From the NCBI RefSeq assembly GCF_056712565.1, contig NZ_CM160072.1: DNA of 64,000 nucleotides. The stretch is one strand, 5' to 3'. Position numbers and translations under genes: made by a program. Below are positions 1-13,292 of the stretch, one piece after another. The notes below the pieces were generated by a model. The model did no database searches and was not told the origin of the DNA. It saw nothing but the letters and a program-made list of their open reading frames with translations. The stretch's first letter is position 1, and each line of letters opens with the position of its first letter.

Positions 1-53
1 ATAAAAAGCATAATTCACCACCGGCATTAGCTATATCTCTTCTGAAACTTGAT

Positions 54-1190
54 GTGTCTGAAAGAAATTACGACTCTTCTGGCAGAAGAATTATCAAACA
101 GACGCGAAATGATGAAAAAGATTTGGGAGGTAAAGTACACCCTGTGTCATCTTCAAGCATCAAACCGGTAGTAGACTACTACATTAATGGAGATAATCTC
201 TATGAACCATTATCAATTCCCCCTTATGGAGTTAGAACTTATAAAGATACTTTTCAACTAATCATCTATAAAGAAGGAATTAGATATAATAAGCCAGCAA
301 TTTATTTTGGTAAAATTCAATCTAATATACGGCTGGAGATAAATTCGAATAGATATTACCTTACTTTTTTAGCCAGAAAGAAAGGTACCAAACAAGCATA
401 TAAACTTGAAATTGATGCTTCAGAATGGGATGAAAGTAAAAAGAGTTTTTTCTGTAGTGAGTATGAAAAACAAAGAGCAGAAGCAAATAAGTATTATAAT
501 GGACTAAAAGACAAGCGCAAAGCAACCAAATATCTTAATATTTTCTTTTTTGGTTTTCCTGATGAGTGCGATAGTTTTTTATTTAAGACTAGTTGTTTTA
601 AATTGATTTATATCGTTTTCTTAGATGATTTTGATGTGACTTATAATGACAAAAACTACAGCATAGAAAAAGAACAGCTAATTAGAGATGAAATTAACAA
701 AGAACATTTGACAGATCATCAAAATAGAATAAACCTTGCTGAGGTTGCTGAGGTTGCTGAGGTTGCTGAGGTTGCTGAGGTTGCTGAGGTTGCTGAGGTT
801 GCTGAGGTTGCTGAGGTTGCTGAGGTTGCTGAGGTTGCTGAGGTTGCTGAGGTTGCTGAGGTTGCTGAGGTTGCTGAGGTTGCTGAGGTTGCTGAGGTTG
901 CTGAGGTTGCTGAGGTTGCTGAGGTTGCTGAGGTTGCTGAGGTTGCTGAGGTTGCTGAGGTTGCTGAGGTTGCTGAGGTTGCTGAGGTTGCTGAGGTTGC
1001 TGAGGTTGCTGAGGTTGCTGAGGTTGCTGAGGTTGCTGAGGTTGCTGAGGTTGCTGAGGTTGCTGAGGTTGCTGAGGTTGCTGAGGTTGCTGAGGTTGCT
1101 GATTTTGACAAGAGCGAATTTAACCCTTCGGATTCTGATAGGAAAATATGGACTGGGATAAGAAAGCTTATTTCATTCTTTAAAAAATAG
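54..1190 (+). CDS. Hypothetical protein with C-terminal (Ala-Glu-Val)n tandem-repeat tract; reading frame is open to window start so the N-terminus may lie upstream
   Basis: 378-aa ORF in AT-rich DNA; about 40 consecutive AEV tripeptides encoded by perfect 9-bp repeat; no stop in frame between position 3 and 54. Confidence 0.45.
   Translation: MSERNYDSSGRRIIKQTRNDEKDLGGKVHPVSSSSIKPVVDYYINGDNLYEPLSIPPYGVRTYKDTFQLIIYKEGIRYNKPAIYFGKIQSNIRLEINSNRYYLTFLARKKGTKQAYKLEIDASEWDESKKSFFCSEYEKQRAEANKYYNGLKDKRKATKYLNIFFFGFPDECDSFLFKTSCFKLIYIVFLDDFDVTYNDKNYSIEKEQLIRDEINKEHLTDHQNRINLAEVAEVAEVAEVAEVAEVAEVAEVAEVAEVAEVAEVAEVAEVAEVAEVAEVAEVAEVAEVAEVAEVAEVAEVAEVAEVAEVAEVAEVAEVAEVAEVAEVAEVAEVAEVAEVAEVAEVAEVADFDKSEFNPSDSDRKIWTGIRKLISFFKK
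737..1100. repeat. Perfect 9-bp tandem repeat (GCTGAGGTT) x about 40, in frame within ORF 54..1190
   Basis: Directly visible in sequence; generates spurious ORFs in other frames (SATSAT.., LRLLRL..). Confidence 0.95.
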
Positions 1191-1221
1191 ATCTATAGCA
1201 GTCATCATATTGGATTATTGG

Positions 1222-1257
1222 TGAAGTGGTACACTGAATTTGCCCACCTGAACAGAG
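1222..1257 (+). mobile_element. Solo IS3-family (IS911-like) terminal inverted-repeat remnant
   Basis: TGAAGTGGTACACTGAATTTGCCCACCTGAACAGAG matches the IS911 terminus seen at about 9880-9915 (reverse complement) with 2 mismatches; no adjacent transposase. Confidence 0.5.
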
Positions 1258-1321
1258 TTGGTTTTATCAAACTTGTAGTTTACTCAATGACGTAAAAATT
1301 GGTGATGTAAAGGATATAAAA

Positions 1322-3106
1322 ATGTGGTCAGACAAAGAGTCATCAGAAGACTACCTAAATTTTGGTGAAGTATCTCAGTTAGCCGTGGATGTACTTACCA
1401 CGAAAGATATGTTACCAGTATCTATCGGAATTTTTGGAAACTGGGGGGCAGGTAAATCCTCTCTGTTAAAACTGATAGAGCAAAAACTTGAGCAAGACGA
1501 CAAAGATTGGATTGTTATCAATTTTGACTCTTGGCTCTATCAGGGGTACGACGACACCCGTGCCGCACTTCTTGAAGTCATCGCTACAGAATTGACAAAA
1601 GCTGCTGAAGGTAATTCAGCCCTTATATCAAAAACTAAGAGACTCCTTAGTCGAGTTGATGGTTTTAGAGCTATGGGATTACTAGCTGAGGGTACAGCTT
1701 TAATGGCAGGATTACCTACTGGCGGTTTGCTTTCTAGGGGGATTGGTGCATTAAGAAATATCACCGATGGCATCCAGAGCCAGGAAGAGTATGAGGCTTT
1801 AGGCAATATAGCTAAAGAAGGTAAAGAAACTGCTTGTGGTTTGATTAAACCACAAACAAAAAAAAGCCCCCCTCAGCAGATTGATGCCTTTCGTAAGGAA
1901 TATGGGGAAATTCTAGAAGAACTTGGAAAGCCACTCATTGTGGTAATAGATAACCTAGACCGCTGTCTCCCTGCCAATGCTATCCATACACTTGAAGCTA
2001 TCAGGCTATTCCTTTTCTTGACTAATACAGCCTTTATTATTGCAGCAGATGAGGACATGATTCGCTCTTCTGTGGCTGATTACTTCAAAGGGGCATCACA
2101 GCGCCATCAAATAGATTATCTGGATAAGCTAATCCAGGTTCCTATTCGGGTGCCTAAGGCTGGGGTCCGTGAGATCCGTTCGTATCTGTTCATGCTTTAT
2201 GCCATTGAACATGGCTTAGAAGGCGAAAAAATAACTATGCTCCGTGAGGGCTTAGAGAAGGCGTTACAGCAATCCTGGAAAGATGAACCAATCTCACGTC
2301 AGGAGGCCTTAAAAATGACTGGTGAAGCGGATGATAGCAACCTCGCGCTGGCGTTTGCGCGTGCTGACCGTATTGCTCCCATTTTAGCCAACTCTCCAAT
2401 TATTCATGGTAATCCCAGGATCGTTAAACGCTTGTTGAATGTTGTGAAAATGCGATCTCAAATTGCGAAGCGACGAGCAATGCCTTTGGATGAAGCAATT
2501 ATTACTAAGCTAGTAATTTTTGAACGCTGTGTTGGAGTGGATGGCACCGCTGATTTATATCATCTCGTGGATATTGAACAAGGTGTTCCCCAGATACTTA
2601 AACAGCTTGACGATAATGGCGGTCAAATACCTACTGATGCACCAAAGACATGGACTGATAGTCCAACGACTAAATCTTTCATCAGTCAATGGGCCCAACT
2701 TGAACCTCGTCTTGGTGGGATTGACTTAAGGGCCGCCATATATCTGTCCCGAGAAACTATGCCAATAGGTGCATATGTGGTTGGTTTATCGCCATCTGGA
2801 CGGGAAGTACTAAATGCACTAATTGAATTGAAAAACACTAGTTCTCCTACAGCAGAAAACCTTTTGAAAGCACTTCCTCGTGAGGAGCAAATACCTGTAA
2901 TGGAAGGTTTAATTAACCAGTTACGGCAGGTATCAGATTGGGATCGTAAGCCCAGAGGCTTTTCCGGTGCATGTCTGTTGGCCCGCTACTCAACAGATGC
3001 AGCCAGCATATTAATTCGTTATCTACAGGAATTACAGTTGGGGATGAAACGACCAGCGTGGATGACTGCAGCATTAAAAGATGAACAATGGAATAAGGAC
3101 GCTTAA
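1322..3106 (+). CDS. qatA: KAP-family P-loop NTPase (QatA-like)
   Basis: Walker A GNWGAGKS, FDSWLYQGYDD motif after P-loop, Walker B VVIDNLDRC; 594 aa; first gene of 4-gene overlapping operon. Confidence 0.75.
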   Translation: MWSDKESSEDYLNFGEVSQLAVDVLTTKDMLPVSIGIFGNWGAGKSSLLKLIEQKLEQDDKDWIVINFDSWLYQGYDDTRAALLEVIATELTKAAEGNSALISKTKRLLSRVDGFRAMGLLAEGTALMAGLPTGGLLSRGIGALRNITDGIQSQEEYEALGNIAKEGKETACGLIKPQTKKSPPQQIDAFRKEYGEILEELGKPLIVVIDNLDRCLPANAIHTLEAIRLFLFLTNTAFIIAADEDMIRSSVADYFKGASQRHQIDYLDKLIQVPIRVPKAGVREIRSYLFMLYAIEHGLEGEKITMLREGLEKALQQSWKDEPISRQEALKMTGEADDSNLALAFARADRIAPILANSPIIHGNPRIVKRLLNVVKMRSQIAKRRAMPLDEAIITKLVIFERCVGVDGTADLYHLVDIEQGVPQILKQLDDNGGQIPTDAPKTWTDSPTTKSFISQWAQLEPRLGGIDLRAAIYLSRETMPIGAYVVGLSPSGREVLNALIELKNTSSPTAENLLKALPREEQIPVMEGLINQLRQVSDWDRKPRGFSGACLLARYSTDAASILIRYLQELQLGMKRPAWMTAALKDEQWNKDA

Positions 3107-3858
3107 TGGGAACATCACAATCAAGTAAAGGTCCAGGAGGTGGCTCTCCGCTGGTTCCACCATGGGCTGATGATCAGCCACAGCAACCGTTACCCTCGCC
3201 GCAAGAAAGGAGGTTTGCGCCATTTCGAGAATCGTTGGGAAATGCGGTATCAAATGGAAATCGAGCAGATTTCAGAAAAGCCATAGGGCACTACGCGCGA
3301 AAAGCCTCCGGAGGGAGCAGTAACGCTGCTCGGCGATTAGGGAGTGTCACGCAAGCTGGGGCCGAATTATTTGGGGCTTTAGTGGGAATGCCTTCGGCTC
3401 CCGGAGAACCAAGCATCGATTTGGGCAGTTTGGCAGGCCTTCCATGCGAAATAGCAATATCAACTATTGCTCAAGCTTTAACATCACAGGATGGTGACTC
3501 AGAAAAGATCTGTGCGGCCATGAACCATGCTTTAGTGGAGGCTCTTGATGGCGTAGAAATTTTCGATCCTCAAAAAATAACTGATGGTGTGATTGTTGAC
3601 ACAATGATTGGTTATCTAGCGGAAAGTATTTTCCTTCAGATGGTAATGGATTCTAATAGGGCATGGAACAAAGCAGATACACCTTCAAAGGCAATTCATG
3701 CAGAAATTGAACTCCGGGAATTGATTAAAGTTGTTGTTGATAAACATATGGCACCAAAACTTGCCGGTAACATAAGATCGTTCACACGAAACCAAATGGT
3801 AAAAATTGAACGTCAGGCCATTATTGAGGCCTGGCAAGAATGGGAGGCATACCAGTGA
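3106..3858 (+). CDS. qatB: Protein of unknown function (QatB-like position)
   Basis: 250 aa, Gly/Pro/Ser-rich N-terminus, no recognisable catalytic motif; start overlaps qatA stop, end overlaps next gene. Confidence 0.55.
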   Translation: MGTSQSSKGPGGGSPLVPPWADDQPQQPLPSPQERRFAPFRESLGNAVSNGNRADFRKAIGHYARKASGGSSNAARRLGSVTQAGAELFGALVGMPSAPGEPSIDLGSLAGLPCEIAISTIAQALTSQDGDSEKICAAMNHALVEALDGVEIFDPQKITDGVIVDTMIGYLAESIFLQMVMDSNRAWNKADTPSKAIHAEIELRELIKVVVDKHMAPKLAGNIRSFTRNQMVKIERQAIIEAWQEWEAYQ

Positions 3859-5159
3859 CACAATTAGTTTTCCATCATAAACATCACCATTTGCCGCCAG
3901 CAAGTGAGAAAGTGTTACCTGTTCAGCTATATGGATTAAGTGGTCAGAGGCGCGGAGATATATCTGTTATCGGGAATCCTGCGATTGATCGGATCAGACG
4001 TTTGGGAGTACAGCTTCCAGCTAAGGTCATGGATTTTCTGAGTGTTGCATTAGCAGTAACTGCAGCAGATACTTTCGTTCAGCGTGAAAGTTCCGAGGAT
4101 GGTTGGACCCGCCAATTGTCGTTACGACTCCCCCTTCATGAACCATCCAGATGGATTAGTCTAAAGAAAGAACTTGAGAGTGCTTTGCATTTTCTTAGTG
4201 GAGACATCTGGGATTTCGAATTTTGTGACGATGGTTATGCACCGCCAGAGCCTTATAGCCAGCATTCAAGGCATCGTCTGATTAAGCTAAAAGGGCTTGA
4301 CTGTGTCAGCTTATTTTCAGGAGGTCTGGATTCAGCTATTGGTGCAATAGATCTTCTGGCTGCAGGGCGCGCTCCACTTTTGGTTAGTCATGCTTATAAG
4401 GGGGACAAGTCTCGTCAAGATCAGATCGCTGAAAAATTAAGTGGCCAATTTTCGCGCTTTGAGATTAATGCTGACCCACACATTTATCAAGGCGTGACTG
4501 ATATTACGATGCGAACTCGTAGCCTCAATTTTCTTGCCTTTGCGGCCGTAGGTGCTTGTGCCGTACAAGAGATATCTCAACAAGAAAAGATTGATTTGTT
4601 CGTACCTGAAAATGGATTTATCTCATTAAATGCACCACTTACTCCACGGCGGATAGGTTCGCTGAGCACACGAACAACACATCCACATTTTATTACGAGC
4701 ATACAAAAGATCTTTGATGCGCTCGGTATTTCTTGTCAAATAATCAATCCATATCAGTTTAAGACAAAAGGAAAAATGATCTCCGAATGTTCAAATAAGC
4801 AGCTCTTATCTAAAATTGTGGAAAGTACAGTATCCTGCAGTCATTGGAAACGAATGGGGCAGCAATGTGGGGTATGTATACCGTGTATCATTCGACGAGC
4901 ATCACTTCATGCAGGGGGAATTAGTAGAGATGTTGAATATATTTTCCAGTCCTTAGCTAAAGTAATGAATGAAATAGATCGCAGGGACGACCTGATCGCC
5001 CTTAGGATTGCGATCACGCAGAAATCGACTTTGAAAATAGGTACATGGATTGCCAAAAGTGGCCCTTTGCCTACGGCAGAATTTGATAATTTCAAGCAAG
5101 TATTTAAGGATGGCCTAGATGAGGTTGAAAGCTATTTACTGAGTGAGAACATAGTATGA
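3840..5159 (+). CDS. qatC: QueC-like PP-loop ATPase family protein (QatC-like)
   Basis: PP-loop SGGLDS; C-terminal Cys cluster CSHWKRMGQQCGVCIPC resembling QueC zinc site; about 150 aa extra N-terminal region; 439 aa. Confidence 0.7.
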   Translation: MGGIPVTQLVFHHKHHHLPPASEKVLPVQLYGLSGQRRGDISVIGNPAIDRIRRLGVQLPAKVMDFLSVALAVTAADTFVQRESSEDGWTRQLSLRLPLHEPSRWISLKKELESALHFLSGDIWDFEFCDDGYAPPEPYSQHSRHRLIKLKGLDCVSLFSGGLDSAIGAIDLLAAGRAPLLVSHAYKGDKSRQDQIAEKLSGQFSRFEINADPHIYQGVTDITMRTRSLNFLAFAAVGACAVQEISQQEKIDLFVPENGFISLNAPLTPRRIGSLSTRTTHPHFITSIQKIFDALGISCQIINPYQFKTKGKMISECSNKQLLSKIVESTVSCSHWKRMGQQCGVCIPCIIRRASLHAGGISRDVEYIFQSLAKVMNEIDRRDDLIALRIAITQKSTLKIGTWIAKSGPLPTAEFDNFKQVFKDGLDEVESYLLSENIV

Positions 5160-5881
5160 GCATCGATATGCACTGTCATCTAGACTTATATCCTCGGCCA
5201 GACCTCGTGGCTGAAGAAAGTAAGCGTCGAGGGACTTATATTCTGTCGGTGACAACAACACCTAAAGCATGGCATGGTACTTCTTTATTGGCTAAAGAAA
5301 GTCAACGAATCCGAACTGCTCTTGGGCTACATCCTCAAATCGCGCATCAAAGATCGCATGAGTTAGACCTGTTTGATTCATTGCTTTCGGAAACTAAGTA
5401 TGTAGGGGAAATAGGGCTTGATGGTGGACAGGGATTTAAAGAACATTGGGATATTCAATTGAAAGTGTTCCGACACATTCTCAACAGTGTAAATCGGGCT
5501 GGTGGCAAGATTATGACTATCCATAGTCGGGGAAGTGCATCAGCGGTGCTTGATGAGATTGAAAATATCGATGGGGTGGCAATATTGCATTGGTTCACTG
5601 GAACACCTAAGCAGCTTGAAAGGGCAATTGATTTAGGATGCTGGTTCTCAGTGGGGCCTGCTATGCTCGATACAATAAAGGGTAAGGCCTTAGTTTTGAA
5701 AATACCCAAATCACGCATTCTTACAGAAACAGATGGGCCATTTGCTAAGTTTCGTAATGACCCACTAATGCCATGGGATAGTGGGATTGCAGAGAAACAG
5801 TTAGCCGCATTATGGGGGATTAGTCAGATGGAGGTTAATGCTCAGCTAGTTGATAATTTTAAGGTATTATGTACATCATAA
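5156..5881 (+). CDS. qatD: TatD-family metal-dependent hydrolase/nuclease (QatD-like)
   Basis: N-terminal DMHCHLD (HxH), EIGLD, C-terminal TETDGPF motifs typical of TatD; 241 aa; start overlaps qatC stop. Confidence 0.75.
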   Translation: MSIDMHCHLDLYPRPDLVAEESKRRGTYILSVTTTPKAWHGTSLLAKESQRIRTALGLHPQIAHQRSHELDLFDSLLSETKYVGEIGLDGGQGFKEHWDIQLKVFRHILNSVNRAGGKIMTIHSRGSASAVLDEIENIDGVAILHWFTGTPKQLERAIDLGCWFSVGPAMLDTIKGKALVLKIPKSRILTETDGPFAKFRNDPLMPWDSGIAEKQLAALWGISQMEVNAQLVDNFKVLCTS

Positions 5882-6433
5882 GAATGAAAAACTTAGATAT
5901 GCATTTACAGTTCAATTCATTTTTCGTCATCAGTTAATTACACATAAAATTAAAAGTAAGAATATATCTACCCTGTGAATGAGTAAGGCGGATTTATATA
6001 GTTTGTAATTAGTTTAAATGTAAGCAGTTCGTCAGAGTGCGTATTCCGCTCTATTCGATCACGGATTGGCCGTTATGACCCGATCTCGATGGAAGTTATT
6101 GGGTGATCCCCTTCCATGAAAATATGCACCGAAGCTCCCGCAGAGGTTTCCGTGGGCGAAGGCATGATTCTGTCCGAGAGCCGGATGTGTTAGAAGCGCA
6201 TGTCCGCTTCGATGAGCGGGGTGTGGAAACAGGATTTATGGTCAGGACAGTAAGGCACCGCCAATCGAAAGAGGCGGCAACAGATATGCCTGACCTGTAA
6301 AATTACCGCGCCACATCTTGACTCTACCCGTTTTCCAAGCGCCCCCCCTTATAGAACGTACACTGGATGGTGATACCGGCTATACATCGCATATTTGACA
6401 GTCAGCTTGCTGAATTTTTCATTGGCTGCAGCA

Positions 6434-7009
6434 TCAGGGCGTTTTCCAGATGACAGCTATAGTAAAAATGATCGCCAGACTGGCGAGAAAGCAGAGCGAA
6501 AGCGGGATTTTGTCCTTCAGTGTCAGGTTCAGCTCTTCTTCAACCCATGCTTTTTCAAATTCACAGTAAAATTTATAATGTGCGTACCAGTTACTTCCGA
6601 AGATCTGTTTGCTGATGACCGTGCCGTAAAACCGGGACATGATAGCGTCGATGGATTGTTGTGTACGCTGATAGTCAAAGTTTGCATCGCTTTTTACGTT
6701 GCGGTAGATGACTTCAAGTTCATTAAAAATTTTGGTCTGCTCAATCCCCGCACTTTCATAACTCTGCTTTTCCGAGTCATAAAACTGAATGTACATTGTA
6801 GCAACACCAAATATAATTAATATCGCGGAAATGACGTTTGTGGCCAGCTCAGGAATAAAAAGGGCGAACACACCGACAGCAAGAGAAATAAAGCTAATCC
6901 AACCGGATGCCTTACAAATCAGATCATAGGTGGCAAAGTTTTTCTTAGCGCCAAATCCAACGTTATAACCATGTCGGGCGATTAATTTCAGCATCTCTGA
7001 TTGCGTCAT
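6434..7009 (-). CDS. Small membrane protein, SLATT-like putative effector partnered with nucleotidyltransferase
   Basis: 191 aa; two central hydrophobic helices (WISFISLAVGVFALFIPELATNVISAILIIFGVATMYIQ) plus C-terminal hydrophobic segment; 7-nt gap after upstream gene. Confidence 0.5.
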   Translation of the reverse strand: MTQSEMLKLIARHGYNVGFGAKKNFATYDLICKASGWISFISLAVGVFALFIPELATNVISAILIIFGVATMYIQFYDSEKQSYESAGIEQTKIFNELEVIYRNVKSDANFDYQRTQQSIDAIMSRFYGTVISKQIFGSNWYAHYKFYCEFEKAWVEEELNLTLKDKIPLSLCFLASLAIIFTIAVIWKTP

Positions 7010-7016
7010 AAAAACC

Positions 7017-8345
7017 TCAGCTTATGGGAACTTCAATCTGGGCCCGGGCAACCACAACCTCATTTTTTATCACATAGCATTCTACCATGTGATCTCCGCG
7101 GAAGTCGGTAGTTTCTTTCTTCGTACAGTAGCCGCCGTCCGAAACGATTTGTCCCCGGATCATATTTCTTCTGCGTGCTTCGTCACCCACGTTCAGTACC
7201 TTCCACATAACGGTGTAGGGTTCCTCTGCCTCCATTTCTGTCAAGTCTGCCCGGAAAAGGAGAGATTTTCGAGCGGAGAGGCGGAATCTTCTGATAAGCA
7301 TCTCCCTCAGGCTTCTGGGAGGGAAACCATCCTGGGTTACGGTACAGTCAAGGTTGAGTGAGTACCTGATATCCACCGGATATTTATCCTCTATAAACTC
7401 TTCGGTATCGGTCCAGGGAACAGCATCTGCCGCATGCGATTCCAGACCAAGACGGGCTTCCATAATACCCACTTTACGTCTGGGGAAGGCTCGTCCGAAC
7501 ACTTTGCGCCAGCGGTCATTTTCACTGGCAGCCCCCTCAGCGTCTAAGGCATCACAACATAATTCATACGCGTGTTTCGCTGCCCGGCCAAACCAGGGAG
7601 ATTTAACACGTACATGCTGATTACTGCCTAACGCGAGATACCTTTCCTTTCTCTCCTCATTTGACAGATATTCAAAAAAGTCTCTGGCGAGGGCTCCCAG
7701 GCTGCCATTTCCGGTATTGTCATAATCTGATGTTGATGAAAGAAAGCGATACGCTAGTGTGTCTATCAGTAAGCCACCCATATTGACGCCATGCAGGTTC
7801 TTCCAGGCTCTGATCATTTTACACAGCTTGCGCAGATTATTGGATTTATCTCGCGAAAATGCGGTCATGGCCGCCTTTTCGTGAAGAGGTTTTGTAATGC
7901 GCCATGCTCCTCCATTATAGCTTTCAGGGAATTTAAAGCTGTCATCATCCTGTCTGAATACAGGTTGAACCTCGACATAAAAGTTTTTAAAGATGATCTG
8001 AACAACCAGTCTGTCCTTTTTCACAGTCTGGTCAGGATATTCTTCCGCCAGAATGTTTCTGACATCTGTAAGCAATGCAGACTGACCATTATCCTTACGG
8101 TTATAATATTCATACTGATTGGGGGGCATAATATAAAGCATATCCAGATCGGATATGCCTTTTATTGCGGTATGTCTGCCTACTGACCCCACTTTCAAGC
8201 GGTTTGCTACCCGGGAACTCGTTCCTCTGAACGCAAGATTTAATGACTTGGTTATTTTTCGATAGTGATAGCTGATCTTTTTTGCCTGTTTGAGGTCAAG
8301 ATTCAAATTTTCAAGAAATTCGCTGAACAATTCCCTGTGGCTCAT
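7017..8345 (-). CDS. SMODS/CD-NTase-like nucleotidyltransferase with about 120-aa C-terminal extension
   Basis: Pol-beta-type NTase signature GSVGRHTAIKGISDLD (GS-x10-[S]DhD) and downstream acidic strand YVEVQP; 442 aa. Confidence 0.55.
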   Translation of the reverse strand: MSHRELFSEFLENLNLDLKQAKKISYHYRKITKSLNLAFRGTSSRVANRLKVGSVGRHTAIKGISDLDMLYIMPPNQYEYYNRKDNGQSALLTDVRNILAEEYPDQTVKKDRLVVQIIFKNFYVEVQPVFRQDDDSFKFPESYNGGAWRITKPLHEKAAMTAFSRDKSNNLRKLCKMIRAWKNLHGVNMGGLLIDTLAYRFLSSTSDYDNTGNGSLGALARDFFEYLSNEERKERYLALGSNQHVRVKSPWFGRAAKHAYELCCDALDAEGAASENDRWRKVFGRAFPRRKVGIMEARLGLESHAADAVPWTDTEEFIEDKYPVDIRYSLNLDCTVTQDGFPPRSLREMLIRRFRLSARKSLLFRADLTEMEAEEPYTVMWKVLNVGDEARRRNMIRGQIVSDGGYCTKKETTDFRGDHMVECYVIKNEVVVARAQIEVPIS

Positions 8346-8448
8346 GGTGTTTCCTTTGGCATGTGAAACATTAGCTTACATTATCATTACACCTTATAAA
8401 AACCAAGATCTTGGGAGGTGAGCGTTCTGCATGGCTTTATGACTTAAA

Positions 8449-8666
8449 CGTAAGCGTTAACGGAGTGCCGTATTGACGCTTATTTATTGGTGAGTACTAC
8501 GTTCCATGGCAGGAGTTCGTCAACTCGGTTGGAAGGCCATTCCGGCAGTACGCTCAGGATATGGCTCAGATACGCTTCCGGATCGATATCGTTCAGTCGG
8601 CAGGTGCCGATCAGCCCGTACAACAGTGCTCCTCGCTCGCCGCCGTGATCGCTGCCGAAGAACATA
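8449..8666 (-). pseudogene. IS66-family transposase 3' fragment with element terminus (GTAAGCG...)
   Basis: 61-aa ORF ending ...LYGLIGTCRLNDIDPEAYLSHILSVLPEWPSNRVDELLPWN resembling IS66 TnpC C-terminus; GTAAGCG terminal motif at about 8449; abutted by IS911. Confidence 0.45.
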
Positions 8667-8685
8667 ATGAATCGCCACGGATAAT

Positions 8686-9498
8686 CTAGACACTTCCGAG
8701 CCGTTGATAATACTGGTTTTCATATTCTGTCGGTGACATCTGTTCGCTAGAACCATGCCGACGCTTACTGTTATAAAACATTTCGATGTAATCAAAAATA
8801 TCACTGCGGGCTTCTTCCCGCATTCCGTAGATCTTTTTCTTTATCCGTTCACGTTTCAACAACTGGAAAAAACTTTCTGCAACCGCATTATCATGGCAGT
8901 TACCGCGACGGCTCATGCTACCCTCCAGGCCGTGTGATTTCAGGAACGACTGCCACTCATGGCTTGTGTACTGACTGCCCTGATCCGAATGAACCAGCAC
9001 CTGTTTTTCGGGATTACGCCGCCATACAGCCATCAGCAGTGCGTTCAGGACAATGTCCTTTGTCATCCGGGATTGCATGGACCAGCCGATAATTTTGCGT
9101 GAGAACAGATCAACAACAACGGCAAGATACAGCCAGCCTTCGTGGGTCCTGATGTAGGTTATGTCCGTTACCCAACGCTCATCAGGAGCATCCGGATTGA
9201 ACTGTCGCTGGAGCCTGTTGGGTGACATGATACTGGCCTCGCCTTTACGTGCCCGCGGGCTTCGGTATCCGACCTGAGCCTTTATTCCGACACGTTTCAT
9301 CAGTCTCCAGACTCTGTTTACTCCGCACTGTTGCCCGCTGTCACGCAGATCCAGATGGATTTTGCGATAACCATAGACGCATCCCGATTCCAGCCAGAAC
9401 TGTTTAATCTGTCCTGTCAGTCTCAGGTCTGCCTGATGGCGTTGTGAATGCGGCTGCTGAAGCCAGGCGTAAAAACCACTGGGATGAACATCCAGCAC
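8686..9498 (-). CDS. IS911 transposase OrfB (DDE integrase domain)
   Basis: 270-aa ORF with IS3-family catalytic region (HSDQGSQYTS.., CHDNAVAESFF). Confidence 0.8.
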   Translation of the reverse strand: MLDVHPSGFYAWLQQPHSQRHQADLRLTGQIKQFWLESGCVYGYRKIHLDLRDSGQQCGVNRVWRLMKRVGIKAQVGYRSPRARKGEASIMSPNRLQRQFNPDAPDERWVTDITYIRTHEGWLYLAVVVDLFSRKIIGWSMQSRMTKDIVLNALLMAVWRRNPEKQVLVHSDQGSQYTSHEWQSFLKSHGLEGSMSRRGNCHDNAVAESFFQLLKRERIKKKIYGMREEARSDIFDYIEMFYNSKRRHGSSEQMSPTEYENQYYQRLGSV

Positions 9499-9554
9499 CC
9501 GACAGAGCAGGCGAACAGGCCAGCAACAGGTGTTGTCACGGATAAAGGCGTACC

Positions 9555-9842
9555 TCAGTCGGACAGCTTTGCGAAGTACGCCGCCTTTTTTAATATTTCA
9601 TTCTCCATTTCAATGCGTTGTAGCTTTTTCCTCAGCTTACGTATTTCGATTTGTTCTGGTGTTATCGGAGAGGCTTTTGGTGTTTTGCCCTGACGCTCAT
9701 CACGCAGTTGTTTGACCCATCTTGTCATTGTGGAAAGGCCAACATCCATAGCTTTGGCGGCATCTGCCACCGTGTATTTCTGGTCAACAACCAGTTGAGC
9801 GGATTCGCGTTTAAACTCTGCGCTAAAATTTCTTTTTTTCAT
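9555..9842 (-). CDS. IS911 OrfA (HTH transposition protein)
   Basis: [49 protein letters not shown].. ; start trimmed to internal Met. Confidence 0.75.
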
Positions 9843-9915
9843 TGGAGCACCTGTGTTGTTCTGAGGTGAGCATATCACCTCTGTTCAGGTGGCCAAATTC
9901 AGTGTGCCACTTCAA

Positions 9916-10289
9916 GCCGGGAGCGGCGTCAGCCAGTCTCCCTTTACCCGCGCTTTTTCGGAAAGCCCACCCCAATGTTTTTCTCCTACACCCCAGCCGG
10001 TCAGCAGGACCTTATCCCCGGTCTGATATTCAGGATGTGAGCTGGCGGACACTGTACCGGCAAAATCAATGCCTGGCACCATTGGAAAGTGCCGGACGAT
10101 AGGCCCGCGGCCCGTAATAGCCAGTGCGTCTTTGTAGTTGATAGATGAACAGTCGACATTGACCTCCACATCCCCCTGTGGCAGCTCGCTTTCAGCGATT
10201 TCAGCAATTTGGGCACTGTGGCGACCATACATCTTACTGATTAATAAGGATTTAAACATTTTTTTCTCGTCTTTCTGGTTTGATGTCAT
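9916..10289 (-). pseudogene. N-terminal fragment of YhdH/AcuI-like NADPH-dependent quinone oxidoreductase, truncated by IS911
   Basis: 125-aa ORF with [34 protein letters not shown] motifs of MDR superfamily; ends at the IS911 terminus. Confidence 0.6.
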
Positions 10290-10859
10290 TGAGCTATAAA
10301 GTAGTCAATAAACAATATTGACCGATCGTCTAATAATCAACGCTGATATCCCAGTGTTTGTCAGAAAACAAGAATTGCTTTTCTTTTCATCAGGTTAAAT
10401 CTATCTTTTTTGATTTATATCAAACCAGATTCGGTCTTCAATTATATAGGCATCAATGTTAGCGGTCCTACAAGATACGCAGTCGATGCTTCAGGGCGTA
10501 CTGATGAAATAAAACAAGTAGGCTGAGATTAGTTGGTCTGCTCATCGCTCACAGCGGACCTTCAGCTTCGTTAGCCAAGCGCTGACATAGTTACCGATGT
10601 AGCGTGTTAATCTGTCGGGAGCATAGCCGAAATCACTTAACCCATTAGACTTCACCTAAAACTGCAAAAATTACCGTCTTTGTCACACTCACCGAGTTTA
10701 ATCAAACTAACACTGTACATAGTGCGAACAAGAGCCAACCAGAAAGACTGTTCAGCATCAACAGTGAAGTTTTTCCCCGCTACTTCCCCGCAATTCTTCC
10801 GCAGTTTTCCCACTAGAGAGTTCGACACATCCCTTGCATACCAACGCTTTGATTCAAAT

Positions 10860-11627
10860 CTCGGTAGTGCATCCAATTAGTAGAATATGTGTTTTTCGAT
10901 AAATGCTCCGATCACTTTTTCGTGGATCTCAACTGAGCGTGAGAAGCAGATTGTTTACGAGCCAACCGCTTAATGTGGGTGCGTAGCGTCAGATTATTAC
11001 GCTCAATGCGTTGGGTGAATATTTTGCCGGTCAGATGCTTATTCTTCGGCACCACCCGGCCATAGCTGTCCCAGTCATCGCTGGTGAGCATGCCGATGTT
11101 GAAGGGTGTAAGCAGTGCCAGTAGCTCCCGGCACGTTTGATCGGTTCGGGGACCAAAAGTGTAGGCCAGTACACCGCCTGTTTTGGTGTTGTACGCGTAC
11201 CAGAGCCAGTGTAGCCGGGCTTTACTGCCAACGTAGCTCCATTGCTCATCAAGCTCGCAGATAAGCGCCACATCAGCATGGGCAACAGGCGAAGAAGTTA
11301 TTTGCGTTGGTGCGAGTTTTTTAAAGTCCGGATGATGGTGTTAATACCAATTTTCAGTGTCCTGGCGGTATCGCGAACCCCGGCACCATTAAAGGCCATT
11401 TCAGTGATCATCTCTTTCATACCCGGCTTACGTGCTTGATAAGTATAAGTGAGCTGAAACACACGGTGGCAGTCACGGCAGCGAAATCTGTCACGGCCTT
11501 TAGGGTTCTGACCATGGCGGTAAACCTGAGCTGACTGACAACGGGGACAATGAATATTAACGCTGGCCATGAGATAACCTCAAAAGCCCGTATTATACAT
11601 CAGATTCAACCAATTAGAGGCATCACC
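10860..11627 (-). mobile_element. Divergent IS1-family insertion sequence
   Basis: InsA-like (11298..11570) and InsB-like (10912..11271) ORFs; ends resemble IS1 IRs (GGTAGTGCATCCAA... / ...GGCATCACC); InsA only about half identical to the canonical IS1 InsA at 17483. Confidence 0.65.
11298..11570 (-). CDS. insA: IS1-family InsA-like protein (divergent isoform)
   Basis: 90 aa, Zn-finger CPRCQS..CRDCHR and HTH resembling IS1 InsA. Confidence 0.7.
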   Translation of the reverse strand: MASVNIHCPRCQSAQVYRHGQNPKGRDRFRCRDCHRVFQLTYTYQARKPGMKEMITEMAFNGAGVRDTARTLKIGINTIIRTLKNSHQRK

Positions 11628-11822
11628 CTTTCCTACATTCGTAGGACTTTGATTACATATAGCAAGGGTTAATTCTTATATACATAGAATAAATTAGGAA
11701 TATAATGAATTTTATCGTGACGACCTTATTTATAATTAATTTATATTGTCAGAGAAATTAGTGTCCACAACATGAAGCCTTACAAAGAGATTCTATGATT
11801 TAAAAAAAATAAGAGCCAGCTT

Positions 11823-13292
11823 ATGCATATCGATTCGACTGAAAAAAATAATAAACAAAAGTTGGGCTTGCTTGCGCTAACATCCATTGTCGTGAGCTCG
11901 ATGATCGGCAGCGGCGTTGACGGACTCCCCCAGAATATGGCGGAGAATTCTGCCGTGGGCCCGGTGGCGATAGCATGGATAGTCTGTGGTATCGGCATGT
12001 TTTTCATCTCCAGAACTTTTATCGTGCTGTCAAACATTAGACCTGATCTCCAGTCAGGAGTTTATATGTATGCCCGGGAAGGGTTCGGCCGATTTACGGC
12101 ATTTAACGTCGCCTGGGGCTACTGGCTGATGACTATATTCAGCAACGTCGCCTTTGCCATTATGGTGATGGATACGCTGAATTATTTCTTACCAGGTGAT
12201 TTCAAGGGAGGGAACAATATTCCTTCCGTTATCGGTGCCTCTTTGCTGATATGGGGATTCAACTTTTTAGTCCTCTCCGGTACCCGCATTGCCGGGTCGA
12301 TTAACATCGTCGGCACGCTGGCCAAACTGATCCCGCTGGTGGCCTTTATTATTATTCTCATGCTGTTTATGAAGTACACCACGTTCGCAGATAACGTCTG
12401 GGGGCACAGCGCGAGTAAGGCCAGTCAGGACCTAGGCTCTATTTTCTCACAGGTAACTTCACCGCTTAGCGTGGCACTCTGGAGCTTCATCGGCGTTGAG
12501 GGGGCTGTCGCTCTTTCCGGTCGGGCCAAAAATAAACGCGACGTGGGTAAAGCCACATTCATTGGCTTCGTTGTATCACTGATTATCTGTCTGCTGGTCT
12601 CCATCCTGCCGTTTGGCGTGCTGACTCAACATGAGCTCAGCGCAATTCCAACCCCATCCACCGCCGGTATTCTGAAGATTGTTGTCGGTGAATGGGGGAA
12701 GATTATGATTATCTTGGGGGTGCTGATTTCGGTGCTTACCAGCTGGCTGGCGTGGACCATCATCTGCGCCGAACTGCCTATGGTGGCCGCGCAGAACGGC
12801 ACATTCCCGAAACCGTTCAGCAAAAAAAATGTGAAGGGTTCGGCCTCGGTTTCGCTTTATATAAGCAGTGCGTTTATGCAAATCGTCGTACTTCTGGTCT
12901 ACTTTTCTAACGATGCCTGGCTTGCAATGCTGGCTATCTCTACCCTGACCGTTTTACCTGCGTATTTAATGACCACGGCATACCTGTTTAAACTATGTAT
13001 TAGCGGCGAGTATGCCAGCTATACCACGAATCACAGCCGCAGCGCCGCGCTGGTCAGCAGTATTATCGGCTTTGTATTCTGCCTGTTTATGTTCTACGCC
13101 AGTGAAATCAAATATCTGGCGATGGTTCCGGTGCTGCTTACGCTGGGCGTGCCCCTGTTTATCTGGGCAAGAAAAAAAGACGATCGCGCAGATAAAATAT
13201 TTACGCTACGCGAACTGGCATTTTTTATTTTACTGCTGGTCCTCGACATCATTGTTTTTATTCTACTGCATTATAAAACGATACATTTTTAG
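11823..13292 (+). CDS. APC-superfamily basic amino acid antiporter, ArcD/YdgI-like (paralog 1)
   Basis: 489 aa polytopic; N-terminal KLGLLALTSIVVSSMIGSGV..LPQNMA and GVYMYAREGFG, FIGVEGAV..SGRAKNKRDVGKAT motifs as in arginine:ornithine-type antiporters. Confidence 0.7.
   Translation: MHIDSTEKNNKQKLGLLALTSIVVSSMIGSGVDGLPQNMAENSAVGPVAIAWIVCGIGMFFISRTFIVLSNIRPDLQSGVYMYAREGFGRFTAFNVAWGYWLMTIFSNVAFAIMVMDTLNYFLPGDFKGGNNIPSVIGASLLIWGFNFLVLSGTRIAGSINIVGTLAKLIPLVAFIIILMLFMKYTTFADNVWGHSASKASQDLGSIFSQVTSPLSVALWSFIGVEGAVALSGRAKNKRDVGKATFIGFVVSLIICLLVSILPFGVLTQHELSAIPTPSTAGILKIVVGEWGKIMIILGVLISVLTSWLAWTIICAELPMVAAQNGTFPKPFSKKNVKGSASVSLYISSAFMQIVVLLVYFSNDAWLAMLAISTLTVLPAYLMTTAYLFKLCISGEYASYTTNHSRSAALVSSIIGFVFCLFMFYASEIKYLAMVPVLLTLGVPLFIWARKKDDRADKIFTLRELAFFILLLVLDIIVFILLHYKTIHF

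Follow-up and report, generated by a model that had tools for sequence, protein, structure and literature searches.

On the minus strand of the window, by which we mean the whole 64,000-nucleotide stretch of DNA analysed here, two open reading frames follow each other with a gap of 7 nt (7010-7016, GGTTTTT on the coding strand). The first gene (7017..8345) encodes a 442-aa cyclase of CD-NTase (SMODS)-AGS-C architecture, as judged by PADLOC, Pfam, RefSeq and fold match, and the second (6434..7009) encodes a 191-aa SLATT_6 effector recognised by Pfam, NCBIfam and PADLOC; the sizes, positions and spacing given in the initial annotation are exact. RefSeq assigns both products generic names only, "nucleotide-binding domain-containing protein" (WP_000019624.1) and "SLATT domain-containing protein" (WP_000194395.1), which leaves an annotation gap. 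For the cyclase, the generic name is explained by its score with NCBIfam CBASS_cyclase_b, which at 100 bits lies under the curated cutoff of 200 bits. A full-text literature search for the two RefSeq accessions returned no mention of either.

The limits of the cassette were obtained from an independent copy on plasmid p30EVA2-3. Comparison of window positions 5800-8800 with this plasmid by blastn gave one 2107-bp alignment of 96.6% identity, corresponding to 6343..8449 on the minus strand, a unit that begins 104 bp before the cyclase start and ends 91 bp past the effector stop. Outside this common unit the flanks are unlike: the plasmid has HEPN genes and dqlB, the window Qat genes and insertion sequence (IS) remnants. 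The 5' leader (8346..8449, minus strand) is the only upstream DNA kept in the plasmid copy, which suggests that it holds the promoter. Reading of the sequence places an AGGA Shine-Dalgarno 6 nt before the cyclase ATG and a GAGG Shine-Dalgarno for the effector gene at 7015..7018 (minus strand); the latter overlaps the stop codon of the cyclase gene, implying that translation of the effector is coupled to that of the cyclase. No stable terminator was found in the 3' tail by RNA folding (MFE z-score +1.1).

On the plus strand, the QatABCD operon (1322..5881) is an independent neighbour that lies outside the CBASS unit; its presence beside the two genes, already reported in the initial annotation, is borne out by full-length PADLOC matches to QatA, QatB, QatC and QatD and by the RefSeq annotation. 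The remaining surroundings are mobile DNA: a remnant of an IS21-type end at about 6032-6071 and, adjoining the upstream region, an IS66 transposase fragment (8480-8665) followed by IS3-family and IS1 copies. Rfam gave nothing in 1-12000 at the gathering threshold, nor in 5880-6440 at E<=1. The segment 6040-6300 was also considered as the 5' end of a group II intron, a reading left unsupported by the absence of an Rfam match and by the fact that its repeated piece matches the IS21-type end.

The cyclase and its C-terminal domain

The whole cyclase (residues 1-442) is matched by the PADLOC model Cyclase PDLC00796 (1.8e-176), and residues 1-161 by Pfam SMODS PF18144 (1.3e-39). The catalytic core, residues 1-288 (7482..8345, minus strand), is modelled by AlphaFold2 with a pLDDT mostly above 80, the mean for the entire protein being 83. 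When the model was compared with the PDB using Foldseek, the top 50 matches were all CD-NTases or cGAS, P. aeruginosa CdnD (6p82) among them with a TM-score of 0.77, and the fold comparison suggested in the initial annotation thus points, at the level of a predicted structure, to a CD-NTase.

The nucleotidyltransferase signature that had been read from the sequence is confirmed in both its parts. The active-site motif G53-S54-x11-D66-x-D68 (8142..8189, minus strand; G53-S54...D66-L-D68 within GSVGRHTAIKGISDLD) aligns with the GS...DxD motif of P. aeruginosa CdnD. The third catalytic acid, E125 (codon 7971..7973, minus strand), lies in the VEVQP strand, within YVEVQP; in the alignment with P. 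aeruginosa CdnD (chain 6p8u_A) it falls on the third catalytic Asp (VDAVP). G53, S54, D66, D68 and E125 are invariant among 35 homologues, down to 51% identity. With a SMODS and a PADLOC match, a predicted CD-NTase fold and invariant catalytic residues, the protein has the features of a CBASS cyclase; the published description of E. coli CdnF04/F05, which carry AGS-C and are paired with SLATT6, makes clade F its probable place by analogy.

Between the core and the C-terminal domain runs a disordered, hypervariable linker (residues 289-312; 7410..7481, minus strand), delimited by pLDDT, column entropy and gaps. In the AlphaFold2 model pLDDT falls below 50 at residues 293-310, and the column entropy of 2.5 bits is the highest in the protein, compared with 1.0 in the core and 1.2 in AGS-C; gaps amount to 17%. 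A semi-conserved hydrophobic-x-E-[AS] motif was nevertheless discernible in this segment. The shorter pattern [IL]xE occurs in 29 of 100 unique linkers and in 10.7 +/- 2.9 after shuffling, a count that ignores phylogeny, and the linker of the window carries it as I295-M296-E297. The same pattern is the preference of phage T4 gp21.

Residues 313-442 (7020..7409, minus strand) are predicted to be rich in beta structure and match Pfam AGS_C PF18134 (2.1e-44) over positions 2-129 of the 129 of the model, so that the domain is present in full. The initial annotation had noted a C-terminal extension of about 120 residues of unknown function. The extension is there; it consists, however, of a 24-aa linker and a 130-aa AGS_C domain that already has a name, "Adenylyl/Guanylyl and SMODS C-terminal sensor domain". 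The profile is matched by 1168 representatives of 50%-identity clusters at E<=1e-3. Conservation was assessed on 48 such representatives, in which W381, K382, N385, G387, R397, G398, G417 and H419 are invariant or near-invariant; E315 (48/49), E411 (48/49), E422 (45/49) and C423 (46/49) are near-invariant as well. A profile search by sequence for solved relatives of AGS-C gave zero matches at E<=10.

Both H419 and C423 are near-invariant in AGS-C. A Cys/His/Cys metal site was considered for this domain and rejected, since 13 of 49 sequences have A, G, S or T in place of C334.

The SLATT6 effector and the proposed mechanism

Residues 1-173 of the effector match positions 1-173 of the 176 of Pfam SLATT_6 PF18169 (5.6e-63); NCBIfam NF033630 gives 223 bits against a cutoff of 100, and PADLOC Effector 2TM PDLC00695 gives 2.7e-82. 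Together with the SMODS assignment of the large protein, these are the outcomes expected from the initial annotation, which had proposed a candidate CBASS-type module and named SMODS and SLATT as the families to look for: PADLOC returns a CBASS cyclase for the one and a 2TM effector of CBASS for the other, both at full length. An unrelated nucleotidyltransferase family with a non-membrane partner, the combination named there as contrary evidence, was not found. Across four libraries the domain and family assignments agree, with HMM E-values from 1e-39 to 1e-176, far beyond chance.

In addition to its profile match, above threshold, the effector has the paired transmembrane (TM) hairpin of the SLATT_6 family (6782..6907, minus strand), formed by TM1 (residues 35-53) and TM2 (57-76) on the Kyte-Doolittle scale and corresponding to helices 3-51 and 58-107 of the AlphaFold2 model. 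A third hydrophobic helix at residues 168-189 (6443..6508, minus strand), seen on the Kyte-Doolittle scale and in the model, is found family-wide, in 35 of 35 homologues. The adjacent pair and the C-terminal third helix had thus been correctly noticed, although the pair lies in the N-terminal third of the protein and is not central. The model as a whole is all-helical, with a pLDDT of 88.

Two stretches stand out by conservation. The N-terminal cytoplasmic motif, residues 10-33 (IA..GYNVGFGAKK.FATYD...K; 6911..6982, minus strand), is made of invariant or near-invariant columns, and the cytoplasmic motif at residues 134-148 (KQI.GSNWYAHYKFF; 6566..6610, minus strand) contains the columns I136, S139, W141, Y142, A143, H144, Y145, K146 and F147, all invariant in the homologue alignment. 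Judged from this conservation, both motifs are candidate signal-binding elements. No solved relative of SLATT6 was found in the PDB by phmmer or by profile search, and Foldseek with the effector model found none either (best E 0.47, TM-score below 0.35). As the initial annotation noted, the effector shows no recognisable nucleotide-binding domain, and the sequence reveals neither the signal nor the site that receives it.

What we observe is the family membership of both proteins, an intact set of catalytic residues, the membrane topology, a pairing that is conserved and a lack of accessory genes; regarding the way in which the system would act, we propose the following sequence of events. In the uninfected cell the cyclase would be held inactive. 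A cue arising late in infection, with a probable link to the assembly of the capsid or prohead, would activate it, most likely through AGS-C and the flexible linker, and the D66/D68/E125 active site would then make from NTPs what is presumably a cyclic oligonucleotide. This signal may bind the cytoplasmic helical part of SLATT6, where motifs 10-33 and 134-148 are the candidate site. SLATT6 would in turn oligomerise or rearrange its TM helices and permeabilise the inner membrane, leading to death or arrest of the cell before phage release (abortive infection). Because SLATT6 has neither a recognisable nucleotide-binding domain nor a solved structural relative, the binding and membrane steps are drawn by analogy with CBASS membrane effectors.

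For the activation step, a more specific possibility is that the linker (289-312) is a protease-sensitive tripwire and the strongly conserved AGS-C an autoinhibitory clamp, so that a cut by a phage prohead protease would free AGS-C and turn the cyclase on. Several hints support this reading: the low pLDDT of the linker, its top entropy, the excess of [IL]xE, and the partial cross-resistance to prohead-protease and scaffold escape mutants reported for AGS-C-bearing operons (bioRxiv 10.1101/2023.05.21.541620). We nevertheless regard it as unlikely. If true, it would extend protease sensing from clades A, D and G to the AGS-C-bearing cyclases, approximately 40% of those of Type I CBASS.

Class, distribution and alternative readings

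The unit common to the window and the plasmid copy contains two genes only, and this identifies the system as Type I CBASS, defined by Millman et al. (2020) as cyclase and effector with neither Cap2/Cap3 (E1/E2/JAB) nor HORMA/TRIP13. The effector gene adjoins the cyclase gene in one operon, no accessory gene was found in 6343-8449, and the surroundings consist of Qat genes and IS fragments. Type II and Type III CBASS were rejected, since the locus consists of cyclase and effector without Cap2/Cap3 or HORMA/TRIP13. We conclude, with a probability of about 0.9, that the cassette is an intact Type I CBASS in which a CD-NTase-AGS-C fusion is translationally coupled to a SLATT6 membrane effector.

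Among 5426 complete E. coli genomes, the cassette is present at full length in 257 (~5%); 254 records match it with an identity of 99% or more. It was found on plasmids in 15 places, and E. coli S88, APEC O1 and the type strain ATCC 11775 carry it with 100% identity. The variant of the window is by far the dominant SMODS-AGS_C/SLATT_6 lineage among complete E. coli genomes. Beyond E. coli, eight different genomic contexts in Acinetobacter and Vibrio vulnificus hold the SMODS+AGS_C/SLATT_6 pair, with a gap of 2-7 nt between the genes; these loci consist of the pair only, plus a DUF2188 gene in Vibrio. A search of 50,697 phage records for close copies gave only two Listeria phages, with 31% identity over half the protein. 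Full-length PHROG families exist for both proteins.

A first alternative sees the cassette as a silent or decaying remnant whose expression ceased when the native promoter or context was lost to IS insertions. IS debris does lie on both sides (the IS21-type end on one, IS66, IS3-family and IS1 on the other), a sigma-70 consensus scan of 8346-8449 on the operon strand gave no strong site, and IS1414 interrupts the effector gene of strain GYB01, so that the system can be lost. In the window, however, both reading frames are intact and keep all invariant catalytic and motif residues, the 104-bp upstream segment is retained in the independent plasmid copy, and the identity of at least 99% across 254 records comes with no build-up of frameshifts. 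We therefore consider such a remnant improbable.

Still less probable is an inverse guard logic as in Panoptes, a system that pairs a minimal CRISPR polymerase (mCpol) as cyclase with a 2TM-beta protein as effector. Under this logic a constitutively made nucleotide would keep the effector off, and phage sponges or nucleases would release the effector by depleting it. The Panoptes layout is also that of a cyclase with a small TM effector, and the Panoptes report describes indirect detection of phage through decoy cyclic nucleotides (Nature 2025, PMC12657218). Against this, the cyclase of the window is a SMODS/CD-NTase with a SLATT6 partner, unlike the Panoptes pair, and related operons restrict five phage families, while escape mutations for Type I CBASS fall in capsid-assembly genes and not in sponge genes, which is the pattern expected of infection-activated synthesis.

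Finally, an addiction or stress module, with a TA-like membrane toxin under nucleotidyltransferase control stabilising the island or plasmid, might be imagined from the plasmid copies and the mobile DNA alongside, given that the HEPN-MNT toxin-antitoxin family includes minimal nucleotidyltransferase (MNT) antitoxins, but it is the least probable reading of all, since the cyclase has a predicted bilobed CD-NTase fold of ~290 aa plus AGS-C and not an MNT of ~100 aa, Pfam NTP_transf_2 matches it with only 0.032, its partner is a SLATT effector and not a HEPN protein, and direct phage-defence data exist for the same architecture. For the large protein taken by itself, an antibiotic nucleotidyltransferase or a minimal nucleotidyltransferase/antitoxin was likewise rejected on the predicted bilobed CD-NTase fold and the SLATT partner.

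Returning to Type I CBASS as the preferred reading, the system type, the domains and the defence phenotype are all published already, and PADLOC-type tools detect the cassette. The locus carries little weight as a discovery and its practical value is modest, the system being known and its phenotype published. The identical cassette in the well-studied ATCC 11775, S88 and APEC O1, on the other hand, makes these strains tractable native hosts, suited to questions that concern the whole class: which nucleotide AGS-C cyclases make, what cue AGS-C responds to, and how SLATT6 reads the signal and kills.

Comparison with known systems

Pycsar likewise consists of two genes, a cyclase and a TM effector. 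Pycsar cyclases adopt a class III adenylate/guanylate cyclase fold and produce cCMP or cUMP, whereas the window cyclase has no class III cyclase Pfam domain and its catalytic domain is SMODS/CD-NTase. AGS-C is shared ground here, being also fused to some Pycsar cyclases (bioRxiv 10.1101/2023.05.21.541620).

On the effector side, Cap15 and other CBASS membrane effectors resemble SLATT6 in being small proteins of the inner membrane whose genes come immediately after that of the cyclase. Binding of the nucleotide signal presumably leads them to disrupt the membrane, and Cap15 reportedly has a C-terminal beta-barrel ligand-binding domain. SLATT6 differs in this respect, since it is predicted to be all-helical and has no beta-barrel domain.

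The closest solved CD-NTases, P. aeruginosa CdnD (6P82/6P8U) and E. coli MS115-1 CdnC (6P80), have the same catalytic fold and active-site residues as the window cyclase (Foldseek TM-score 0.77, E 1e-15; 21-22% identity over ~316 columns). The third catalytic acid is, however, Glu in the window cyclase and Asp in the solved enzymes. Unlike the window system, which has no HORMA/TRIP13 genes, CdnD and CdnC belong to Type III CBASS, are regulated by HORMA/TRIP13, act with nuclease effectors and have no AGS-C.

The CD-NTases of clades A, D and G are activated by proteases through a loop of ~30 aa inside the core, the mechanism having been mapped only in these clades (Hobbs & Kranzusch, bioRxiv 2026, PMC12991175). 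Like them, the window cyclase has a disordered segment of variable sequence. Its position differs: in the predicted structure the only long low-confidence segment, 293-310, lies at the junction of core and AGS-C, and none is seen within the core. Type I CBASS systems with AGS-C are genetically linked to the phage prohead protease or scaffold.

The nearest tested operons are EcCdnF04-SLATT6, from E. coli BIDMC103, and EcCdnF05-SLATT6 (also Cell Host Microbe 2024), which have the layout of the window: CD-NTase-AGS-C, then SLATT6, with no accessory genes. EcCdnF04-SLATT6 restricts phages at least 10^4-fold across five families, and protection against phage is reported for the CdnF04/F05-SLATT6 operons of E. 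coli (Richmond-Buccola et al., bioRxiv 10.1101/2023.05.21.541620). As of this 2023 preprint, no nucleotide product of clade F CD-NTases had been observed in vitro. The pairing of synthase and membrane effector, described in the initial annotation as a predicted arrangement, was rightly recognised and is more than predicted, as phage restriction has been demonstrated for E. coli operons built in the same way. Taking into consideration this shared architecture and the dominance of the window variant among E. coli lineages, the operon described here is probably identical, or nearly so, to one of the EcCdnF04/F05-SLATT6 operons that were tested.

Operon layout and cyclase identity

As the initial annotation had claimed, ORF listing gave two minus-strand genes separated by 7 nt, one encoding 442 aa (7017..8345) and the other 191 aa (6434..7009). 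The GAGG Shine-Dalgarno of the second gene, encoding the effector, overlaps the stop codon of the first, encoding the cyclase. The G+C content of this region is 45-48%, compared with 50-55% from ~13.5 kb onward in the window.

The nucleotidyltransferase motifs expected in the larger protein were both found (GSVGRHTAIKGISDLD, residues 53-68; YVEVQP, residues 123-128), and a Kyte-Doolittle analysis of its 442 residues revealed no hydrophobic segment. Pfam assigned residues 1-161 to SMODS (PF18144, 1.3e-39) and residues 313-442 to AGS_C (PF18134, 2.1e-44, model positions 2-129 of 129), with the generic NTP_transf_2 reaching a mere 0.032, and the PADLOC "Cyclase" CBASS model PDLC00796 spans residues 1-442 (model 1-430 of 432, 1.8e-176). 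The uninformative RefSeq name of this protein, "nucleotide-binding domain-containing protein", is explained by the NCBIfam model CBASS_cyclase_b, which scores 100 bits and so falls under its curated cutoff of 200 bits.

In an alignment of 35 homologues sharing 51-88% identity, from Enterobacterales, Vibrio, Neisseria, Aeromonas, Chitinophagaceae and metagenomes, residues G53, S54, D66, D68 and E125 are invariant. A phmmer alignment matches the GS and DxD motifs to those of P. aeruginosa CdnD (6p8u_A) and places E125 (VEVQP) opposite the catalytic Asp (VDAVP) of that enzyme. An AlphaFold2 model built from the 35-homologue alignment (mean pLDDT 83) has a bilobed helical/beta core at 1-288, a disordered stretch at 293-310 (pLDDT <50) and a beta-rich C-terminal domain. 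When this fold was compared with the PDB by Foldseek, the top 50 matches were solely CD-NTases, DncV and cGAS, the best being P. aeruginosa CdnD (6P8U, E 7.8e-16; 6P82, TM 0.77, 21% identity).

The AGS-C domain and the linker preceding it behave differently in alignments. The domain is strongly conserved, with a column entropy of 1.2 bits versus 1.0 for the catalytic core, and 1168 AGS-C domains were retrieved at E<=1e-3 when 1.84 billion cluster representatives were searched with its profile; among solved structures, a sequence-level profile search detected none. Across 48 representatives of 35-58% identity, E315, W381-K382, N385, G387, R397-G398, E411, G417, H419 and E422-C423 are invariant or nearly so, while C334 is not conserved. 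Such a fixed polar signature speaks for a conserved pocket or intramolecular contact rather than for an antibody-like recognition surface that diversifies rapidly. The linker (residues 289-312) is the most variable and the sole disordered part of the cyclase (2.5 bits), and despite this variability a hydrophobic-x-E-[AS] motif is semi-conserved in it. Of 100 unique linkers, 29 contain [IL]xE, compared with 10.7 ± 2.9 after shuffling; the linkers being related, no probability is attached to this comparison. Phage prohead proteases cut an internal disordered loop and thereby activate CD-NTases of clades A, D and G (Hobbs and Kranzusch 2026, PMC12991175), a study whose coverage lies outside clade F and AGS-C; by analogy, and speculatively, the linker might serve as a protease tripwire.

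The SLATT6 effector

The smaller protein belongs to SLATT_6 (PF18169, 5.6e-63), which together with the SMODS assignment gives the pair of families that had been proposed. NCBIfam NF033630 (223 bits, cutoff 100) and the PADLOC CBASS model "Effector 2TM" (PDLC00695, 2.7e-82) also match it. The Kyte-Doolittle profile shows a double hydrophobic segment at ~30-77 and a third at ~166-191, and an AlphaFold2 model agrees; the adjacent helix pair and third C-terminal helix foreseen from the sequence were recovered. The model is all-helical (pLDDT 88): helix 3-51 starts in the cytoplasm and leads into TM1, helix 58-107 makes up TM2 and re-enters the cytoplasm, three short helices occupy 113-160, and a last hydrophobic helix lies at 170-189. 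Residues 1-34 carry five K+R versus two D+E and the loop at 54-56 has no positive charge; this distribution fits an N-in topology with a cytoplasmic helical region of ~90 residues and the C-terminus outside. All 35 homologues possess the third hydrophobic helix, and the family name "2TM" therefore understates the hydrophobic content.

Conservation in the homologue alignment peaks outside the membrane helices, in two cytoplasmic motifs, IA..GYNVGFGAKK.FATYD...K (residues 10-33) and KQI.GSNWYAHYKFF (residues 134-148). From this pattern we infer that both motifs together form a candidate signal-binding site, in which the Gly-rich and Lys-Lys element might hold phosphates and the aromatic cluster might stack bases. 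Relatives in the PDB were found neither by sequence (phmmer and profile) nor by fold (Foldseek, best E 0.47).

Boundaries, distribution and surroundings

Copies with 100% identity to the 2.2-kb region occur in E. coli S88, APEC O1 and the type strain DSM 30083/ATCC 11775. Among 5426 complete E. coli genomes, 257 have matches over most of the query, 15 of the places being plasmid-borne. A sensitive E. coli search returned 254 records at >=99%, 17 at 95-99% and four at <90%, and so revealed almost no second lineage of the pair in this species. The 96.6% identical copy on plasmid p30EVA2-3 overlaps the chromosome at exactly 6343-8449 of the window and nowhere outside, which marks out a self-contained cassette of two genes plus 104 bp of leader and 91 bp of tail. 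On the plasmid (1627-3794) it adjoins two HEPN-domain genes and DinQ-like dqlB type I toxins, which may be another small defence/toxin cluster. In E. coli GYB01 (NZ_CP125731.1, 840133-843635), the IS256-like IS1414 splits the SLATT gene of an otherwise identical cassette, a natural effector knockout.

The SMODS+AGS_C/SLATT_6 pair, with a 2-7 nt gap, also occurs in Acinetobacter and Vibrio vulnificus (four contexts each), and for many homologue pairs the longest contig listed is equal in size for both partners, consistent with co-location. Cap2/Cap3, HORMA and TRIP13 genes were found beside the pair at none of the loci examined, which makes this a Type I CBASS architecture. The four V. vulnificus contexts share a conserved 77-aa DUF2188 gene (4758-4991 in the coordinates of the Vibrio loci) lying 9 nt upstream of the cyclase (5001-6290 in the same loci). 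This gene, which the cassettes of E. coli and Acinetobacter lack, may be a third component or regulator; the Vibrio SLATT_6 protein is longer (238 aa). Both E. coli proteins match full-length PHROG families of unassigned function (cyclase phrog_17525, 1.8e-112; effector phrog_23029, 2.3e-37), so the cassette also exists in phage or prophage genomes; in the INPHARED phage set, matches were confined to two Listeria phages and were distant and partial (31% identity).

In the window the cassette lies between QatABCD and IS debris. The description of a defence islet was right, QatABCD (1322-5881) having full-length PADLOC matches. Upstream of the cyclase, 8480-11570 is a heap of mobile-element debris. 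Next to the cyclase lie a C-terminal piece of an IS66 transposase (8480-8665) and an IS3-family element whose frameshift is programmed (8686-9878); these are followed by a truncated alcohol dehydrogenase gene (9912-10289) and then by an IS1 copy that is frameshifted (10912-11570). On the other side, a ~35-40-bp piece at ~6032-6071 is also found on many other chromosomes and plasmids of E. coli, in up to 33 places per genome; it is probably an IS21-type terminal-repeat remnant, because one genome has it ~65 bp past the istB end of an ISSso4-family, IS21-like element. Elsewhere in the 460-bp spacer between qatD and the cassette (5882-6342) there is a 65-aa ORF (6103-6300); nothing there is annotated or matches Rfam. 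Directly upstream of qatA, a hypothetical protein gene (ORF 54..1190, plus strand) carries a perfect 9-bp tandem repeat (736-1102, 40.8 copies, 100% match), in frame as (AEV)n and likely a hypervariable VNTR; its S88 version is 1599 bp, and the protein has a weak PADLOC match alone (PD-Lambda-4_B, 1.2e-4).

Proposed mechanism and known relatives

Pfam, PADLOC and Foldseek support the proposed reading of a CBASS-type synthase with a membrane effector, and the analysis shows the protein families, the intact catalytic residues, the topology and the operon structure. A late-infection cue would activate the AGS-C cyclase, whose D66/D68/E125 site would make a cyclic oligonucleotide. Binding of this product to the helical cytoplasmic region of SLATT6 would be followed by permeabilisation of the membrane, aborting infection. 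Three other readings are improbable even when taken together. The intact ORFs and conserved leader speak against a silent remnant that is no longer expressed. A Panoptes-like inverse logic conflicts with a cyclase of another family and with escape genetics that fit activated synthesis. A toxin-antitoxin-like addiction module has the wrong fold and the wrong partner.

Operons of this architecture have been described before. SLATT6 is among the standard CBASS membrane effector classes (2025 survey), and 17 gammaproteobacterial Type I operons have been cloned, including EcCdnF04-SLATT6 (E. coli BIDMC103) and EcCdnF05-SLATT6 (Richmond-Buccola et al., bioRxiv 10.1101/2023.05.21.541620). In that study EcCdnF04-SLATT6 restricted phages of five families at least 10,000-fold; the ~18-kDa AGS-C fusion, predicted to be Ig-like and without known function, was present on ~40% of Type I CD-NTases; protection against Drexlerviridae was broader with AGS-C operons; prohead protease/scaffold escape mutations gave partial cross-resistance across AGS-C-bearing operons, including F04 and F05; and, according to the authors, clade F CD-NTases had until then never yielded an observed product in vitro. 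We infer that the cyclase studied here belongs to clade F, and the cassette is likely one of the two tested operons. The defence phenotype of the CD-NTase-AGS-C plus SLATT6 architecture has been demonstrated in the literature. What remains of value are family-wide questions, for which the E. coli type strain offers a native model. The system is a Type I CBASS of an already-known kind, a CD-NTase-AGS-C cyclase with a SLATT6 effector; it is common in E. coli, and experiments on near relatives have validated it.
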